Positions 10,815 to 57,613 of a stretch of DNA of 64,000 nt are shown piece after piece. Below the pieces are notes generated by a model. That model saw nothing but the letters and a program-made list of their open reading frames with translations. It was not told where the DNA came from and did no database searches. The position numbers and the translations under genes are program-made. The DNA is from Alphaproteobacteria bacterium (lineage in GTDB: Bacteria; Pseudomonadota; Alphaproteobacteria; Micavibrionales; Micavibrionaceae): contig JASBUS010000042.1 in the NCBI GenBank assembly GCA_030147745.1, positions 10,836 to 74,835 of the forward strand, in the 5' to 3' direction. The number at the start of each line of letters is the position of its first letter. Within the stretch, counting starts at the first letter, position 1.

Positions 10815-10843
10815 AGCTAATATCAGCTACATAGAGAGTAAAG

Positions 10844-39575: not shown

Positions 39576-40462
39576 ATAACGAACGAGCGTTGCCTGATAT
39601 GAGTTTAATTTTATCTGTTCAATCACATGTGGCTTATGGCTATGTCGGCAATTGCGCCGCAATCCCGCCTTTGCAAGCGTTGGGGCATGATGTCATTGCC
39701 TTGAACACCGTGCATTTTTCCAACCATACAGGCTATGGTGATTGGCGCGGCCGTATCACGGCGCTTGATGAATTAACCGCCTTGATTGAAGGCATAAAAG
39801 CGCGCGGCCTCTTCCCGCAAATTGATGCGGTGCTGACGGGCTATATGGGGGATTCAGCCCTTGGTGCTTTGGTGCTTGAGACCCTAAATGACATTCGCAA
39901 AGAAAATCCTGCCTGTTTATATGGCTGCGACCCTGTTATGGGCGATGTTGGGCGCGGTTTTTTTGTGCGTGATGATGTGCCTGAATTTTTTAAAGATCAG
40001 GCTTTACATGCTGCGGATATTTTAATTCCCAACCAGTTTGAAGCATCGTATCTATCTGGCGTTGAAATTACCGATCATCAAAGCGCGATACAGGCCTGCG
40101 CTAAATTGCATCAAGGTGGTGCAAAAACCGTGTTAATGACATCTTATCACCCGATTGACTTGCCGTTGAATGAAATTGCCATGCTGTTATCGGATGTGGA
40201 TGCGGGGGTATATGTCGTGAAAACGCCGCGCTTCTCGCTCGACCCGATGCCGAATGGCGCGGGCGATGTGACGGCGGCAACTTTCCTTGGGCATATTGTA
40301 AAGGGCTGCGCTGTTGCGGATGCGCTCGGCCTGACCGCGGGGGCGCTTCATGCCTTGTTCACGAGAACCAATGCGGCGGCGCGCCGTGAATTATACTTGC
40401 CGCAAATGGGCGTTGAATTTGCAGCGCCATCAAAAGTTTTTGCCGTTGAGCGCTTACATTAA
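39572..40462 (+). CDS. pdxY: Pyridoxal/pyridoxamine kinase
   Basis: [15 protein letters not shown] and the ribokinase-fold GAGD anion hole. 296 aa. It overlaps the upstream GT gene by 4 nt. Confidence 0.8.
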
Positions 40463-41496
40463 GGCAGCTTTGGCGCGGCAATATCATAGATGATTTGTAA
40501 ATAATCTGTATTTTTTGTCGCTTGATATTCTTCACGCGCAGAATAAGCCAGTTTAATCGCATGATCATTACTTGAATTGCGGATCACGTCCCAGGCAGCG
40601 CTTAGCTCTGATGGATCTGTGATATGCGTCTGCGGTTTGTTTTGATCATTTATTTCTGGTGCACCGACTGAAAGATATGTCGCGAGCGCCGCCTGCCCCA
40701 TAGTTGCGAGTAATGTGTCTTGCGCGGCCGCTTTGTTATAAAGGCTGCTTAAGGCGTGAATGGCGGTCAGGCCATGTAACGTCGTGAAATTGCTTTGTGC
40801 CTGATACATTTCAAGCGCGATCGTGCGGAAATCCGCAAGCGTGACTTGGTCGCTTAATGGATTATTCTGTAATAAATCTTGAAAGGCGGGCGTATCGCTC
40901 ACGGCTTTAATCTTACTAAAAATATTCGGCGCGCTATGCGGTAAATGCGCGAAATCACCATTTTGATGCGCTTGATGCGCTAAGGCAAAGGCATCACGCA
41001 GGCTTGCGCCTTGGGATGATAATGTCGGCGCAACAGATGTGATGCTTTGATGCGTGTCTGCCCAATAGGCAAGGCCGCGTGCGACTTCGGCATCATTGTC
41101 AGACCAAATGCCATAAGCGGTACGGATTAAACCATGGAAGGCACAGCCACAAACACCATGCATTAATGTATTGATGTGACGTTTCAAGGTTTCTTCGCTG
41201 CCTAATTTACTGATTTCACGCGTAAAGAATTTATCTTGTGCGAAATAATAATCACGCGTGCCGAGGAAATTGGTGTAATTGCCTGCTGTGAGCATGGTTT
41301 TGCTTTTTTGTTTTAATGGGCGCAGTCCGCGGGCGCGGATATGGTCTTTGGTAAAAGCATCGATTTGAGTTTCGGATGCGCCAATCTCATAAAGTGCGTG
41401 GATGGCCATCGGCAAATGGTTGGTCAGTTTTGGTCCATATTCAGGCGCTAAATAAGCATAAGAATTGATCAGCGTTCTGATGTCTGCTTTATCCAT
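40459..41496 (-). CDS. DUF4243 / questin-oxidase-like protein
   Basis: NHLPMAIHALYEIGAS resembles the family signature as I remember it. I chose the start at MDKADIR because GGGAGG lies 7 nt upstream. Confidence 0.5.
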   Translation of the reverse strand: MDKADIRTLINSYAYLAPEYGPKLTNHLPMAIHALYEIGASETQIDAFTKDHIRARGLRPLKQKSKTMLTAGNYTNFLGTRDYYFAQDKFFTREISKLGSEETLKRHINTLMHGVCGCAFHGLIRTAYGIWSDNDAEVARGLAYWADTHQSITSVAPTLSSQGASLRDAFALAHQAHQNGDFAHLPHSAPNIFSKIKAVSDTPAFQDLLQNNPLSDQVTLADFRTIALEMYQAQSNFTTLHGLTAIHALSSLYNKAAAQDTLLATMGQAALATYLSVGAPEINDQNKPQTHITDPSELSAAWDVIRNSSNDHAIKLAYSAREEYQATKNTDYLQIIYDIAAPKLP

Positions 41497-41531
41497 GTTG
41501 TGGCCTCCCATATTTTTGTTATTTTTTTGAT

Positions 41532-41547
41532 TGGCGGCAGTCTAGCA
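41532..41547 (+). promoter_or_regulatory. Weak sigma-54-type -24/-12 candidate (TGGCggcagtcTaGCA)
   Basis: GG and GC have the canonical spacing, ~170 nt upstream of icmT. A match of this quality can occur by chance. Confidence 0.2.
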
Positions 41548-41719
41548 AAGCTATGCGTTTATGTAAAGGTCTGTTAAGACAATGGTAAGGTTGACGCGTT
41601 AATATAAGCAATAGAGCGATAAAATGACGATTCCTGTTTCTTTTTAGTCGTTATTTTATTAGAATCTTATAAGTAACCAATTCGGGTTAATCCGCGCGTA
41701 GATTTTAGGGTATATAGCG

Positions 41720-42016
41720 ATGAGTTCACCACATGACGCACAAGAACAGGTAAATTGGCACTGGCGCAATACAACACGCCCAATGCGCTTTTTTAGCATG
41801 GATTCTCGAGCGGCTTTGCCTTATTTGATTTTGCTGCCTTATGCGCGCCCAATTAGTTTGGCGTTTTGCGTGATTTCGACCATTATTTTCGTGATCTTGG
41901 AAAAACATGGTTTGACCTTCCCATCGGCTTTGCGTGCGTTGCGCCACACTATGGTGGGGGAAAAACGTTATGCATTGGCACGTATTCGCCGCCGCCGTAT
42001 GCGCGACCTTGGCTAA
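41720..42016 (+). CDS. icmT: IcmT/TraK-family protein (Dot/Icm type IVB secretion inner-membrane component)
   Basis: 98 aa. HWRNTTRPMRFFSMDSRAALP, then a TM helix, then FVILEKHGLTFPSALRALRHTMVG. This matches the IcmT pattern HWRDSAR..RFF..DARAAFP ... LE+FGFT as I remember it. Confidence 0.7.
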   Translation: MSSPHDAQEQVNWHWRNTTRPMRFFSMDSRAALPYLILLPYARPISLAFCVISTIIFVILEKHGLTFPSALRALRHTMVGEKRYALARIRRRRMRDLG

Positions 42017-42056: not shown

Positions 42057-42572
42057 TTACTGTGGCTTACGCTTGGCGAAATAGCGTTGGCATGCGCCTT
42101 GTAGTTCTTTGGTCAGCGCTTTACCTGCTTCACCGCCAGTGCCGCTCATTTTTTTAAGGACAATCAGCGTGAGGGTTTTGTGATGGGCACGGACAATCTC
42201 GACCGCATCTTTATCCATGGTTTCAATCTTCTCAAGAAAATCGACCATGATGTTGGTCATGATTGTGACCAAATCATATTTAAACATTTTGGCATTGGCT
42301 TTAAGGTCAAAAACCGGCTTGAACAGACGGCTTTTATGTTCATCAAGATTGCCGCCTTCGTTTTTGGTGGCCAGTTCAAGGGCGACTTCTAATTGTTTAA
42401 GGAAATCCATAGCAACAGGTAGAAATTCTTGCGTATTTTTTTCAAGCGCGACTTCGCAGGCTTGGATTCGTTCGTCAGCAATTTTGCCGCGCCCTGCTTT
42501 TGCTTGGAGCATGCGGCTTGCGGTAATGACTTTAGCTTTGCTGCCGCCACTATTATGCGCCTGTTCTGACAT
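42057..42572 (-). CDS. Hypothetical all-helical protein downstream of a receiver-domain gene
   Basis: 171 aa from MSEQAHN (AAGG 10 nt upstream), predicted helical. It follows the response-regulator gene on the same strand. I recognise no family. Confidence 0.45.
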   Translation of the reverse strand: MSEQAHNSGGSKAKVITASRMLQAKAGRGKIADERIQACEVALEKNTQEFLPVAMDFLKQLEVALELATKNEGGNLDEHKSRLFKPVFDLKANAKMFKYDLVTIMTNIMVDFLEKIETMDKDAVEIVRAHHKTLTLIVLKKMSGTGGEAGKALTKELQGACQRYFAKRKPQ

Positions 42573-42668
42573 ATACATTTTACCTTTGATCCTATTCAAT
42601 ATGCATAAAGCTTGGAATAAAAGCATTTACACGTAAATTAAAAATACAGTGAAAGCCTTTAAAAAGAG

Positions 42669-43181
42669 TTAACCGACACTCCATGCATCTTCGAAATCTT
42701 CTTCACGGCGGCGTGGCCCTTGATAGTCTTCCGTTGCTTTACGGCGGCGGTCAGGGCCAAAATAACCGTTATAATCGATAAAGTTGCGTGGGTTATTGAT
42801 GACATGTTGCAGGCGACGTGTAAGGTCTTGCGCCGCGAAAGGCTTTACCAAAAATTCTGTCACGCCGCAATCGCGTGCTTCTTCAACGCGTGGACGCGCG
42901 CTATAGCCCGTAATCAAAATGATTGGCACCATTTTATTCGGCGAGCCAGGGGTTGTACGGATTTTTTTGGTGAGTTCAATGCCGTTCATCGGCTCCATGA
43001 GCCAGTCGGCTAAAACAATGTCGGGGTTTTGCTGGCAAAATATATTATAGCCTTGCTCCCCATTGCTAGCCTGATACACTGTACCAACGCCAAGTGCTTC
43101 GAGGACGGACGCAATTAAATTACGCATGGATTGCGTGTCATCAACGACCAGAACACTTATTTTTTCAAATTTTAACCCCAT
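42669..43181 (-). CDS. Single-domain CheY-like response regulator with a basic C-terminal tail
   Basis: VLVVDD ... ADWLMEPMNG (phospho-acceptor Asp) ... KP. The tail is FGPDRRRKATEDYQGPRRRE. There is no output domain. Confidence 0.85.
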   Translation of the reverse strand: MGLKFEKISVLVVDDTQSMRNLIASVLEALGVGTVYQASNGEQGYNIFCQQNPDIVLADWLMEPMNGIELTKKIRTTPGSPNKMVPIILITGYSARPRVEEARDCGVTEFLVKPFAAQDLTRRLQHVINNPRNFIDYNGYFGPDRRRKATEDYQGPRRREEDFEDAWSVG

Positions 43182-53392: not shown

Positions 53393-54898
53393 ATGAGCAA
53401 GCTATCGCAAAATATTAATCTTAAACAAAGTCAGACGCTGGTGATGAACCAGCAAATGCAGCAGGCTATCAAGTTGCTGCAGCTGTCGAATGTTGAGCTC
53501 AGCGAATATCTGGAAGAGATATTAGAGGCTAATCCATTGCTTGAAAAAGTTGATGCGAGTGGCACGCATGAAAGCATGACGGATCGCAATCAAAAAGATA
53601 GCGATTCCATGGATGATAACTTCGCGCAAGATGATTGGGATAAATCAGGTGATAGCAGCGAAGCGTCTTATGAGCCCTCAGAAACGGAATATGCAAGTGG
53701 CGGCGATAGCCACGATGTCGGCGATAGCAGCAATGATATGCTCGGCGTTGGTGCGGGTGGGTCGCATAAATTTGATGACCCTGAATATTCATTTGAAAAC
53801 CGTTTAAGTAAAGAGCCGTCTTTGCGTGAACATTTGATGGATCAACTGCATATCATGACAGAAGATCCGCGTGACCGTATGATCGGTGCGCTTTTGATTG
53901 ACCAATTGGATGAGGCAGGTTACCTGCGCGCTGATCCTGAAGAATTAGCCGCGCGCCTTGAATGTTCTGAAGATCGCATTAGTAAATTGCTGACCAAAAT
54001 GAAATATTTTGACCCAGCGGGGATTTTTGCGCGTGACCTTGCGGATTGCTTGGCGATGCAGCTTGATGAAGCAGGGCAGCTCGATGCGCCAATGCATCGT
54101 TTGCTTGATAACCTTGATTTGCTAGCCGCGCATGAATGGGACAAATTATGCAAGGCTTGTGACGTGAACCGCGAATATCTGAATGATATGGTCGAAGAAT
54201 TGCGCCGCATGCAGCCAAAGCCCGCAAGTGAATTTGACCATTTTGTTGCGCAAACCGTTGTGCCAGATGTCTATATGCGCCCGCGTCCTAAAAATTTAGG
54301 CGGCGGCTGGCATGTTGAATTAAACAACGCGACTTTGCCAAAGGTTTTGGTTAATCAGGAATATTATACGACGGTCGCGAGCAAGGCGAACCGTAAGGAC
54401 GACAAAGACTTCTTATCATCGCAAATGCAATCTGCCAATTGGTTGGTGCGTGCACTTGACCAGCGCGCCCAAACCATTTTGAAAGTGGCGAGTGAGATTG
54501 TTGAGCAGCAAAATGCCTTCTTCTTATATGGCATTGAATTTTTGCAGCCGATGAATTTAAAAGACATCGCTGAAGCCATTGAAATGCATGAATCAACCGT
54601 TTCGCGTGTCACCACCAATAAATATATTGGTACGCCGCGCGGTGTGTTTGAGCTTAAATATTTCTTCTCAACCGCGCTGATTGGGGCTGATGGCTTGGTA
54701 CATTCTGCGGAAGCGGTGAAGTCAAAAATTAAATCCATGATTGATGGCGAAAGCCCTGATGCGATATTGTCTGATGACCGTATTGTTGAAATGTTAGCTG
54801 AAGATCATATCGATATTGCCCGCCGTACCGTTGCAAAATATCGTGAAGCTATGAATATCCCATCCTCTGTTCAGCGCCGTAAAATGAAAAAGCAATAA
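53393..54898 (+). CDS. rpoN: RNA polymerase sigma-54 factor
   Basis: Gln-rich region I (LKQSQTLVMNQQMQQAIKLLQLSN), an acidic region II, an HTH, and the RpoN box ARRTVAKYR. Confidence 0.95.
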   Translation: MSKLSQNINLKQSQTLVMNQQMQQAIKLLQLSNVELSEYLEEILEANPLLEKVDASGTHESMTDRNQKDSDSMDDNFAQDDWDKSGDSSEASYEPSETEYASGGDSHDVGDSSNDMLGVGAGGSHKFDDPEYSFENRLSKEPSLREHLMDQLHIMTEDPRDRMIGALLIDQLDEAGYLRADPEELAARLECSEDRISKLLTKMKYFDPAGIFARDLADCLAMQLDEAGQLDAPMHRLLDNLDLLAAHEWDKLCKACDVNREYLNDMVEELRRMQPKPASEFDHFVAQTVVPDVYMRPRPKNLGGGWHVELNNATLPKVLVNQEYYTTVASKANRKDDKDFLSSQMQSANWLVRALDQRAQTILKVASEIVEQQNAFFLYGIEFLQPMNLKDIAEAIEMHESTVSRVTTNKYIGTPRGVFELKYFFSTALIGADGLVHSAEAVKSKIKSMIDGESPDAILSDDRIVEMLAEDHIDIARRTVAKYREAMNIPSSVQRRKMKKQ

Positions 54899-55022
54899 AA
54901 CTATGTATAGTTTTATTGTTGGCTCTAGAATTTATTGCAATTGTATTTCAGTGCGACATACTCTAAACTATGCTTTGCTAAGAAGCATATTTCGCGAATA
55001 AATAATCTATAGATATATCACC

Positions 55023-55523
55023 ATGATTAAAAAACATTTTCAAATTTTGTCTTTGGTTTCGGTCCTAGCGCTTGCAGGCTGTGATACAGCTTCGGTCATT
55101 CGTAATGATGCACCACAAGTTGTGGCGTCCCCTGACCGTGTTTCTCTAATGTTGGCAGATGCCGCAGATAAAGCGTCCGTCGCTTTGGAAACATTAGCGG
55201 CGATCGAGCAATATAATTCACCAAAAGTTGCAACAGCGGCGCCAGCGAATGTTCCGGCGGAATTGAACCGCGCGGTGACAATCGATTGGATCGGTCCAGT
55301 TGAGCAAATCTCTAAAACATTGGCGGACCAATCTGGTTACCGCTTTGTTGTTTTAGGTGATGTGCCGCCTGTACCAGTCGTTGTTGATGTCGATGTTGAA
55401 AATCGCCCGATTATCGAAGTGCTTCGCAATATCGGCCTACAGCTTGGCCGCCGTGCGGATTTGAAGCTTGATTCAAACCGCCGCGTCGTTGAAATCTATT
55501 ATGCACCGGTTTCCGGTCTTTAA
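55023..55523 (+). CDS. dotD: DotD/TraH-family lipoprotein (type IVB secretion outer-membrane core)
   Basis: Lipobox LALAGC. VTIDWIGPVEQISKTLADQSGYRFVVLGDVPPVPVVVDVDVENRPIIEVLRNIG...VVEIYYAP parallels Legionella DotD (VDWSGPIEEL...FRFRVLGK.P.VPVLISI......EILRDI...VVELRYAK) as I remember it. Confidence 0.8.
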   Translation: MIKKHFQILSLVSVLALAGCDTASVIRNDAPQVVASPDRVSLMLADAADKASVALETLAAIEQYNSPKVATAAPANVPAELNRAVTIDWIGPVEQISKTLADQSGYRFVVLGDVPPVPVVVDVDVENRPIIEVLRNIGLQLGRRADLKLDSNRRVVEIYYAPVSGL

Positions 55524-55595
55524 GTGGCATATGTGATGGCGGGCGGCTATTTTTAGCCGCAATGCCCTCACGATATAATGATAAGGTTAGAAATT

Positions 55596-56474
55596 ATGCG
55601 CATATCAACTCTATCTCGTTCAAAAATTCGCCATATGCTTATGGGTGCGTCTGTATTTGGCGTTTTACTTACTGCGGGTTCTATGTCTGCGATGGCGGCT
55701 GACGGTAAAATGGCGAAATTGACCATGGAACCACCGCGCAAAATGAAAGAATTACAAAATATTGAGCCGGTCAATGTTGACCGCGAAAAGGCAGAAAAAG
55801 CAATGCCGCTTGATATTCGCCGTGATGCATTGATCGAGGCCGCTTTGTCTTTTGGCGCACGTGGCGGCTTGGCGATGCGTACCTATGAGATTAATAAAGA
55901 ACTCGATCGCCAAACAAGCTATTTGGACAAAATCTATAACTTCAGAAGCTTATTAATTGCTGTGCCATCAGGTTTGTTGGTTGAACCGCCAATTATTTCT
56001 GAATCTGTTGATGCGATGATTATTGATGGCGATGGCCAAAGCGCAGCGGTATCTGACCGTATCTATAACATCAATAAAAACGCTAAAATCGTTGCGGCAG
56101 CACGTGACTGGCGTGATTATTTGCAGCGCGATTGGGGGGAAGTGAAAAACCCGCCTGAATTATTGATGCCGCAAGATGATGAAGAGCGCGAAATTTGGGA
56201 AGAAAAAGTCGCACAAGGTTGGAAGAGTGGCTATAAACAAGCCGATGAAACATTCGAAGCCGACTTGGCCCGCCTTGTCAGTGAGTTTAGCGGCATGGTG
56301 CGTTACCGTAAACTATTGGCACAAGGCATGGTTTCCCCACCTTATGCGAATCAGGTTGACCGCGGTGTAACAGGCGGTGGTTATGAAATGCGCGTTGGTG
56401 ACCGTGCAATTCAGCTCACAGGTAAACCGCAACTGATCAGTGGACACAGCCAATGGAAGCCCGCAAACCGGTAA
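55596..56474 (+). CDS. dotC: DotC/TraI-family protein (type IVB secretion outer-membrane core)
   Basis: ~293 aa, between dotD and dotB as in Legionella/Coxiella. Signal peptide ...LLTAGSMSAMA/AD. The conserved region is IRRDALIEAALSFGARGGLAMR ... NFRSLLI ... VEPPIISE. The start is ATG 55596 (AAGG upstream) or 55578. Confidence 0.7.
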   Translation: MRISTLSRSKIRHMLMGASVFGVLLTAGSMSAMAADGKMAKLTMEPPRKMKELQNIEPVNVDREKAEKAMPLDIRRDALIEAALSFGARGGLAMRTYEINKELDRQTSYLDKIYNFRSLLIAVPSGLLVEPPIISESVDAMIIDGDGQSAAVSDRIYNINKNAKIVAAARDWRDYLQRDWGEVKNPPELLMPQDDEEREIWEEKVAQGWKSGYKQADETFEADLARLVSEFSGMVRYRKLLAQGMVSPPYANQVDRGVTGGGYEMRVGDRAIQLTGKPQLISGHSQWKPANR

Positions 56475-57613
56475 GCCTTCTTAAAGGCGCAGACAACATT
56501 GCCCAGACATGGCCTGATGAACCTGATCGTTTTCATCAGGAACATGTCGACAATTATCTGCTGTGGTGCGTAAAAAAAGGCGCATCCGATATTACCATTC
56601 AAACAGATCGTCCAGGCTATAACGATATTTCTGGTATATTATATCCAGGGACATATCGTCCGATTGATGCGGCGGATATGAACGTCTTTTTAGCCAAAAT
56701 CTACGGCCCTGATGCCGCGGCGCGCTTGGCCTCTGGTACGGATTTGGACGTATCTTATGAAATTCGACCTGACCGTTATACCCGTATTCGTTTTCGTGTG
56801 AATATTACCGCGATTCTCTCTCGTGGTCGTGATGCTGTGCAAATCACGATGCGTACTCTGCCAAGTGAGCCGCCAACAATGAAGGCGCTTAACGTCGAAC
56901 AAGAAATCATCGATAACTGGGCGCCACGTCAGGGCATGGTGGTGATTACGGGGCCAACAGGCTCTGGTAAATCAACATTGCTCTCTGCGGGTAACCGTAT
57001 GCTGCTTGAGCGTATCCATGGCTGCGGCAAAATGCTGACTTATGAATCGCCGATCGAATATACATACGACACAATCAAATCACCGCGCTCACTTGTCTCG
57101 CAAACCGAAATTCCACGTCACTTACCAGACTTCGCGGCTGGCGTGCGTAATGCGCTTCGTCGTAAGCCAGAGATTATTTTGGTGGGTGAGGCGCGTGATA
57201 AAGAAACAATCTCTGCTGCGATTGAGGCGGCACAAACTGGTCACGCTGTATATACGACAACCCACACAACAGGTGTGGCCTCAACCGTCCGCCGTATGAT
57301 CACGACCTTTGATACGACAGAACGGAACGAACGTGCGTTCGCCTTGATGGAAACATTACGTATGATCGTCACGCAGGCGCTTGTCCCTAAAATTGGTGGT
57401 GGCCGTTTAGGCTTACGCGAATGGATGGTTTTTCCTGCCAATGTGCGTGAAAAATTACTCGATATGGAGTTTGATGACTGGACCAATGAAATTCAGCGTA
57501 TGATTCCTGCCTATGGCCAAACCATGAATAAATCAGCAACCAATGCGTTTGAAGCTGGCTTAATCGAAAAACGTCATTACCTTGCCCTAACAGCGGGCGA
57601 AGGTGGCCATTAA
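56453..57613 (+). CDS. dotB: DotB/TraJ secretion ATPase (PilT-like hexameric ATPase of type IVB systems)
   Basis: PDEPDRF...ASDITIQT, Walker A GPTGSGKST, TYESPIEY, SQTEIPRHLPDFAAGVRNALRRKPEIILVGEARD, and TGHAVYTTTHT. This is collinear with Legionella DotB as I remember it. It overlaps the dotC end by 22 nt. Confidence 0.85.
   Translation: MEARKPVSLLKGADNIAQTWPDEPDRFHQEHVDNYLLWCVKKGASDITIQTDRPGYNDISGILYPGTYRPIDAADMNVFLAKIYGPDAAARLASGTDLDVSYEIRPDRYTRIRFRVNITAILSRGRDAVQITMRTLPSEPPTMKALNVEQEIIDNWAPRQGMVVITGPTGSGKSTLLSAGNRMLLERIHGCGKMLTYESPIEYTYDTIKSPRSLVSQTEIPRHLPDFAAGVRNALRRKPEIILVGEARDKETISAAIEAAQTGHAVYTTTHTTGVASTVRRMITTFDTTERNERAFALMETLRMIVTQALVPKIGGGRLGLREWMVFPANVREKLLDMEFDDWTNEIQRMIPAYGQTMNKSATNAFEAGLIEKRHYLALTAGEGGH

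Follow-up and report, generated by a model that had tools for sequence, protein, structure and literature searches.

The question raised by the DNA examined here was why a small gene of a type IVB secretion system (T4BSS), icmT, stands by itself among unrelated genes of a bacterial chromosome, away from the dotDCB genes of the same system. The DNA, called the window below, was a stretch of 64,000 nucleotides (positions 10,836 to 74,835 of contig JASBUS010000042.1, assembly GCA_030147745.1; contig C13 of genome G000 in our numbering) from an alphaproteobacterium of the family Micavibrionaceae in the Micavibrio-like order Micavibrionales, whose cultured members prey on other bacteria. The analysis showed that the open reading frame (ORF) is a genuine IcmT/TraK gene under strong purifying selection and that an ordinary rearrangement, common to the species of one genus, accounts for its isolation. 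The gene was best explained, with a probability of roughly 80%, as the functional IcmT of a chromosomal, vertically inherited Dot/Icm-type machine that belongs to the core traits of the entire order, the isolation being historical and not functional.

Identity and conservation of icmT

The icmT coding sequence occupied positions 41720 to 42016 of the window on the plus strand, began with ATG and encoded 98 amino acids followed by a stop codon. It matched the NCBIfam profile NF038220 (IcmT_TraK) with 81.6 bits (E 3.3e-23), covering positions 1 to 80 of the 81 in the profile and residues 15 to 94 of the protein; NF038220 is an equivalog model with a curated cut-off of 40 bits. The protein carried 12 extra N-terminal residues before the start of the profile, and none of the Pfam models matched the ORF. 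The preliminary description of this DNA had called the ORF an IcmT homologue and had named the absence of a profile match as the finding that would speak against it; the search was run and gave a clear match. A six-frame NF038220 search of the whole assembly (2.39 Mb, 101 contigs, 98.6% complete) returned this one match only, and icmT was thus single-copy.

The reading frame was unbroken in all five species of the genus, and the amino-acid identity to the four congener orthologues was 74 to 86%. Against these orthologues the dN/dS ratio was 0.06 to 0.12, with dS at 1.5 to 2.5 and hence saturated. An alignment of 11 orthologues had 36 invariant columns, which included E9-Q-V-N-W-H-W-R-N17, R20, P21, R43 and L60-E-K62 as well as R72, R75, R83 and R92 in the C-terminal tail. 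The closest relatives were loci in metagenome-assembled genomes labelled Micavibrio sp., Pseudobdellovibrionaceae or Alphaproteobacteria, which places the window in the Micavibrio-like order and not in the Legionellales. The G+C content near icmT was 0.47, similar to that of the neighbouring genes.

The isolation of icmT from every other T4BSS gene would fit a non-functional relic that survived its relocation by chance. However, the intact frames, the low dN/dS at saturated synonymous sites, the retention of all functionally tested motif residues and the fact that no second icmT exists in a genome where the other parts of the machine are retained argued otherwise. The selection analysis effectively refuted the relic, which is extremely unlikely.

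Ancestral gene order and its break

Genomes spread evenly over the order (151 genomes, 8 families, 55 genera) were compared. icmT was found once in 148 of these genomes, representing 54 of the 55 genera, and in all 115 high-quality genomes; dotB was found in 146 of the 151. Among the 146 genomes with both genes, icmT was the next gene after dotB, in the same orientation, in 125, with a median gap of 128 bp between the hidden Markov model matches. dotD, dotC, dotB and icmT were contiguous at loci L005 to L011 and in six genomes from the family of the window; in most cases Dsb-like, p340 and SLT genes came before them and a TcpQ-like gene after them. A module of DsbC/G-like, p340, SLT/TrbN-like, dotD, dotC, dotB, icmT and TcpQ-like genes was also seen at loci L027 to L032.

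The annotation of plasmid pBSY19_1 of Bosea sp. RAC05 gave DotD/TraH, TraI-family, ATPase and IcmT/TraK in the same order, and we take dotD-dotC-dotB-icmT to correspond to traH-traI-traJ-traK of IncI plasmids. The order shared by 125 of the 146 genomes and the Bosea plasmid suggested that these four genes formed an ancestral module in I-type systems. In Legionella, icmT heads the icmTSRQPO operon, and this operon had been taken as the baseline in the preliminary description. Since icmT adjoins dotB in most genomes of the order and in the Bosea plasmid, the baseline of this lineage is the dotDCB-icmT module, and the Legionella operon was the wrong reference; the icmT of the window is not at the head of such an operon.

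Comparison within the genus showed that the split layout, with icmT apart from rpoN-dotDCB, was present in all five species. The genes were arranged as DUF4243 (minus), icmT (plus), a gene for a 189-aa hypothetical protein (minus), a response regulator gene (minus), ALDH (in three of the five species), RTX, lptB, rpoN, dotD, dotC and dotB. The placement next to dotB/traJ that is typical of I-type genes was therefore absent. The orphan state is a derived change, because the ancestral place of icmT is behind dotB and the split layout is common to the five species of this genus; the gene is solitary for no other reason than its displacement from dotB in a single genus. The comparison with related genomes thus agreed with the preliminary description as to a solitary icmT in the genus, and departed from it in the rest of the order, where adjacency to dotB is the rule.

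The site left behind was also found. On contig C57 of the same genome, the Dsb, p351, SLT and TcpQ-like genes were contiguous, and only 118 bp separated the SLT gene from the TcpQ-like gene, where dotDCB-icmT sits elsewhere. No relics of dotD, dotC, dotB or icmT were found at this empty site, and neither an icmT relic behind dotB nor a dotB relic before icmT was found. The flanks of dotDCB-icmT in other genera had no genes in common with those in this genus. These data give the following history. The ancestor of the order carried an operon-like module of Dsb-like, p340, SLT, dotD, dotC, dotB, icmT and TcpQ-like genes. In the ancestor of the genus, the four dot/icm genes were lost from the module site, dotDCB coming to lie behind rpoN and icmT 13 to 16 kb upstream, between the DUF4243 gene and the response-regulator pair. 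The move may have involved a tandem duplication followed by reciprocal loss, or else two transpositions.

The dotB|icmT junction broke independently in genus g42, G074 and G145, besides this genus. In genus g42 (genome G039), icmT lay 25 kb from dotB, an independent relocation, and at locus L033 (G039:C3:189748-190648) its stop codon overlapped the start of a 207-aa housekeeping-type gene by 14 nt, which suggests co-transcription with an unrelated gene; we guess that this gene is YggS-like. In G074, icmT and the TcpQ-like gene were inverted, breaking the junction, and in G145 a 2.3-kb insertion was found at the junction.

Components of the secretion system in the genome

Profile searches of the whole genome placed T4BSS genes at at least seven loci: icmT, dotDCB, icmLKEG, icmPO, icmJB, five dotA genes at two loci, and an accessory module. 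icmT alone and dotDCB lay on the plus strand of the window contig C13. The icmL, icmK and icmE genes and an icmG-like gene were at C28:57332-62363 (minus strand); icmP/dotM and the gene of a DotL-like (IcmO-like) coupling protein were at C62:974-5418 (minus); icmJ/dotN and the gene of an IcmB-like ATPase were at C78:19354-23163 (plus), right after the rpoA-rplQ ribosomal cluster; and the accessory group of DsbC/G-like, p351, SLT/TrbN-like and TcpQ-like genes was at C57:21852-25491 (minus). This map agreed with the earlier claim that T4BSS genes are scattered in small groups through the core chromosome. The same claim had called the organisation unusual; the scatter is real, and the orphan state of icmT is a derived trait of one genus and not a general feature of the lineage.

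IcmL/DotI matched NF038072 with 198 bits, above the cut-off, and IcmK/DotH, IcmE/DotG, an IcmG-like protein, DotM/IcmP, a DotL-like protein and IcmJ/DotN were also encoded. The core set of DotA, DotB, DotC, DotD, IcmB, IcmE, IcmJ, IcmK, IcmL, IcmO, IcmP and IcmT was present, several members scoring below their cut-offs. Directly after icmJ/dotN was the gene of a 995-aa protein with a Walker A motif, which aligned with IncI1 TraU over 95% of its length (E 5e-91). TraU is the plasmid counterpart of IcmB/DotO.

These homologies raised the alternative that the ORF is the TraK of an integrated IncI-like conjugative element, that the system transfers DNA rather than proteins, and that icmT was left stranded by a mobile element in decay. 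NF038220 covers both IcmT and plasmid TraK, the 995-aa ATPase matched TraU proteins from over 3,000 conjugative plasmids, the nearest plasmid relatives were alphaproteobacterial megaplasmids with DotD/TraH, TraI-family, ATPase and IcmT in order, and IcmS (PF12608), an effector adaptor of the coupling complex, had no match in the genome, the control genomes being equally silent. However, one copy of icmT per genome in 148 of 151 genomes, with 8 families represented, is the distribution of a core gene that is passed on vertically. The parts of the system were dispersed over six or more contigs, next to ribosomal genes, rpoN and metabolic genes, and icmT was under strong purifying selection with the G+C content of its neighbours. 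No match to the MOB_P relaxase (PF03432) was found in the genome, other relaxase families not having been searched, and the systems of seven marine Micavibrionales were classed as relaxase-less pT4SSi (PMC9418006). An origin of this kind is unlikely. The plasmid IcmT/TraK proteins, such as that of Bosea pBSY19_1, belong to the same family and their module has the gene order found across Micavibrionales; they shared only about 32 to 37% identity with the IcmT of the window, which is encoded on a chromosome, vertically inherited and detached from its module.

Three further features of the system were observed. Five DotA/TraY paralogues matched TIGR04346 with 92 to 241 bits, three of them in tandem at C42:5153-12972 and two at C89:1-4197; a T4BSS does not usually have so many copies of the DotA channel protein. 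A 148-aa ORF at C78:18877-19323, which immediately precedes icmJ and the gene of the IcmB-like ATPase, had weak matches to TrbC/VirB2-pilin and DUF6750 (E about 4e-5, below the cut-off) and may be a pilin-like T4BSS component. Paralogous Cys-rich (CC/CxC) proteins of 400 to 640 aa with signal peptides were encoded at C28:62674-69941 of this genome (G000), adjoining icmLKEG, and at L005:4070-10197 and L006:9634-15465, convergent to icmT in two distant relatives. This family matched nothing in Pfam or NCBIfam and may comprise T4BSS-linked surface or substrate proteins.

Predicted topology of IcmT and probable docking of DotO

Hydropathy analysis of IcmT showed a polar basic N-terminal tail (net charge +1), a hydrophobic core at residues 31 to 61 and a C-terminal tail with a net charge of +9. 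The 31-residue core was broken by the invariant Arg43. A single transmembrane helix, as proposed in the preliminary description, fits this profile less well than two short helices or a hairpin, like those predicted for Legionella IcmT. The Legionella protein has 86 aa, with two internal membrane segments and both tails cytoplasmic by prediction (PMC11474061).

Vijayrajratnam et al. (2024) reported that DotO has two non-redundant receptors in the membrane of Legionella, IcmT and the DotJ-DotI complex, and that the VirB4-like ATPase DotO, and DotB via DotO, are recruited to the polar Dot/Icm complex (PMC11474061). Alanine at W11/R12/R16 or at the C-terminal R71/R79/R82/R86 of Legionella IcmT led to the loss of polar DotO recruitment (PMC11474061). 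In the 11 aligned orthologues, W15-R16-x3-R20 was invariant, with spacing identical to that of W11, R12 and R16 as described in PMC11474061 and compared by position, not by direct alignment. The two proteins share the NCBIfam family, a predicted central hydrophobic hairpin, the basic N-terminal tail, the Arg-rich C-terminal tail and the W-R-x3-R spacing, at 98 versus 86 aa, and counterparts of DotO/IcmB and DotI/IcmL were encoded in this genome. Legionella differs in being a gammaproteobacterial parasite of eukaryotes, whereas the present organism is an alphaproteobacterium of a lineage of bacterial predators.

Because the W-R-x3-R motif and the Arg-rich tail are kept and the genome also encodes the presumed partners, DotO docking would be the most probable role of IcmT here. 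By analogy with Legionella, IcmT would form a short helical hairpin in the inner membrane, and its two tails would face the cytoplasm. Jointly with IcmL/DotI, it would dock the VirB4-like ATPase IcmB/DotO, and through DotO also DotB, at the base of the channel of a machine that presumably translocates proteins.

Some results weighed against this interpretation, in addition to the silence of the IcmS profile. The AlphaFold2 model of IcmT had helices at residues 29 to 41 and 44 to 62 at low confidence (pLDDT 60), so that the topology rests on hydropathy and analogy. A sequence search of the PDB gave no relatives of IcmT or of the DotO-like ATPase. The assignment of the 995-aa protein as DotO/IcmB is suggested by its TraU homology and its place next to icmJ and by no curated model, the only match in Pfam and NCBIfam being a marginal one to TraC. 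DotB, DotD, DotM, DotG and IcmJ/DotN scored under their NCBIfam equivalog cut-offs, and the T4BSS here is therefore divergent.

Putative promoters and motifs upstream of icmT

The spacer upstream of icmT was 208 bp long. A likely Shine-Dalgarno sequence, AGGG, was read at positions 41707 to 41710 (plus strand), 9 nt before the ATG; four of the five congeners had AAGG or AGGG at the corresponding position, and L003 had diverged here. Alignment of the congeners also revealed a candidate icmT promoter at positions 41637 to 41665 (plus strand), with a conserved T-rich block (TTTCTT) and a -10-like hexamer. The block GTTTCTTT-N-TTTATTAGAAT (41636 to 41665) was kept in four of the five congeners, with the -10-like sequences TAGAAT, TAGAAT, TAATAT and TACTAT. 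In the window, the candidate -10-like TAGAAT was at positions 41660 to 41665, about 55 nt before the ATG of icmT. The consensus scan missed this candidate because its -35 region is poor. From these sequence features, icmT probably has its own sigma-70-type promoter, from which the relocated gene would be transcribed alone.

On the minus strand, the promoter scan showed TTTACA-17-TAGACT, a promoter of the sigma-70 type whose -10 box is preceded by TG, at positions 41567 to 41539, pointing at the divergent DUF4243 gene. According to the reverse complement of the alignment, a minus-strand -35 hexamer (TTTACA or TTTGCA) and a TAnnnT -10 box with a constant 17-nt spacing were present in all five congeners. 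TTATG(T/C)AAA, the complement of the -35 hexamer, was conserved in all five spacers. The -10 box at 41539 to 41544 fell inside a sigma-54-like element, and the -35 box corresponded to the conserved TGTAAA block, which lies 15 nt beyond it. The conserved upstream block is better explained as the -35 box of the divergent promoter.

A weak sigma-54-type element upstream of icmT had been pointed out in the preliminary description. The string TGGCGGCAGTCTAGCA was present at positions 41532 to 41547 (plus strand), and its frequency and conservation were those of a chance match. TGGC-N7-TNGCA had 3 matches in the window versus 5.5 +/- 2.0 in shuffled sequences. The canonical GG-N10-GC was found only in the window, and in the four congeners the spacing was 7, 9 or 15 nt or the GG was missing. 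Given the minus-strand promoter at 41567 to 41539, the TAGCA of this element was part of the -10 region of the DUF4243 gene. A sigma-54 promoter for icmT was rejected on account of this chance frequency, the unconserved spacing and the overlap with the sigma-70-type promoter of the neighbour.

An inverted repeat that had been noted in the same description, TAACC-N6-GGTTA, did exist at positions 41674 to 41689 (plus strand), in the presumed 5' leader, and the exact string was unique. At about 1/1024 per position and with six possible loop lengths, we estimate that a 208-nt spacer should contain roughly one inverted repeat of 5 bp with a loop of 3 to 8 nt, and the repeat was not significant. The icmT leader folded at -6.7 kcal/mol versus a shuffle mean of -8.7 (z +0.89), and the leaders of the congeners gave z values from -0.95 to +1.35, so that no leader in the five species was more stable than its shuffles. 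A regulatory 5'-leader hairpin, similarly drawable in four of the five congeners and in none of them better than shuffles, was rejected. The CpxR/OmpR-like direct repeat GTAAA-N5-GTTAA within the conserved upstream block was likewise rejected as a shared dot/icm operator, its spacing in the congeners being 5, 5, 9, 16 and 6 nt. The conserved upstream 10-mer TTATGTAAAG had one other site in the genome and was at no other dot/icm locus; it is therefore not a shared dot/icm operator.

These results bear on whether the separation of icmT is adaptive, that is, whether a regulated promoter of its own (sigma-54 or regulator-dependent) controls DotO docking apart from dotDCB, for example on prey contact. 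icmT is monocistronic with a 208-bp spacer, the layout is kept in five species despite saturated dS, rpoN lies in the same window, and the dotB|icmT junction has been broken several times independently. However, the sigma-54 motif has a chance-level frequency and an unconserved spacing and overlaps the -10 box of the neighbour, the 10-mer TTATGTAAAG recurs at a single place away from dot/icm genes, the inverted repeat is not significant, and conservation of gene order inside one genus requires no selection. An adaptive separation is very unlikely. The broader idea that repeated independent uncoupling of icmT and dotDCB reflects separate regulation of IcmT as an assembly switch, with the DotO/DotB motor docking only at prey contact, is distinctly unlikely. 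If it were true, the promoter of the solitary icmT would be a control point of a type IVB machine for bacterial predation.

Genes around icmT and dotDCB

The neighbourhood of icmT was as first described. A questin-oxidase-like (DUF4243) gene lay divergently upstream at positions 40459 to 41511 (minus strand; PF14027, 105 bits), and a 189-aa hypothetical gene and a receiver-only response regulator gene (PF00072) lay convergently downstream at 42057 to 43181 (minus strand); the ORF map and Pfam matches confirmed both, and both were the same at L001 to L004. icmT was monocistronic, stood among unrelated genes and had no T4BSS neighbour. The stated distance of 13 kb to dotDCB also held: dotD-dotC-dotB was found at positions 55023 to 57613 (plus strand), directly behind lptB-rpoN and 13.0 kb downstream of icmT. 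DotD matched NF033882 with 110.8 bits, under its cut-off of 140; DotB matched TIGR02524 with 397.8 bits, under its cut-off of 463; and DotC matched PF16932 (T4SS_TraI) with 262.9 bits, over the cut-off.

The same regions were compared with M. aeruginosavorus ARL-13. In ARL-13, rpoN (GMV_158) was followed by a ribosome-interface/hibernation gene (GMV_159); in the window, dotDCB sat right after rpoN (53393 to 57613). The RTX gene and lptB-rpoN were about 50 genes apart in ARL-13 and adjacent in this genus. GMV_102 to GMV_107 of ARL-13 had the same run of gene sizes and annotations, not matched by sequence, adjoining ALDH and a giant RTX gene, and no small ORF was present between GMV_102 and GMV_103. 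That ARL-13 has the hypothetical, response regulator, ALDH and RTX run without icmT suggests that the new neighbours of icmT are positional and not functional. The icmT orthologue of ARL-13 should be close to flgK (GMV2433).

Significance for the Micavibrio-like order

The presence of a T4BSS in the order was already on record. In the survey of Needham et al. (2022), the genomes found to carry a Dot/Icm-type system that lacks a relaxase (pT4SSi) included seven marine Micavibrionales, a system of the same kind in the same order (PMC9418006). That record was a survey count only; gene order, the dotDCB-icmT module and its break-up were not part of it. The genome paper of M. aeruginosavorus ARL-13 reported no sign of type IV secretion genes (PMC3189940), a statement that the order-wide searches for icmT and dotB contradict.

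Taken alone, the solitary icmT is a point of annotation: a small, easily missed ORF is a true T4BSS subunit, and its odd place is a genus-level rearrangement. The surrounding secretion system is more interesting than the solitary gene. The finding has a broader use as a marker, since icmT and dotB are single-copy and near-universal in the Micavibrio-like order, and the ancestral dotD-dotC-dotB-icmT module ties this chromosomal system to I-type conjugation systems. The Legionella result on IcmT and DotO (PMC11474061) offers a direct, testable role for IcmT in this lineage, with the use of the machine in predation as the question to be asked.

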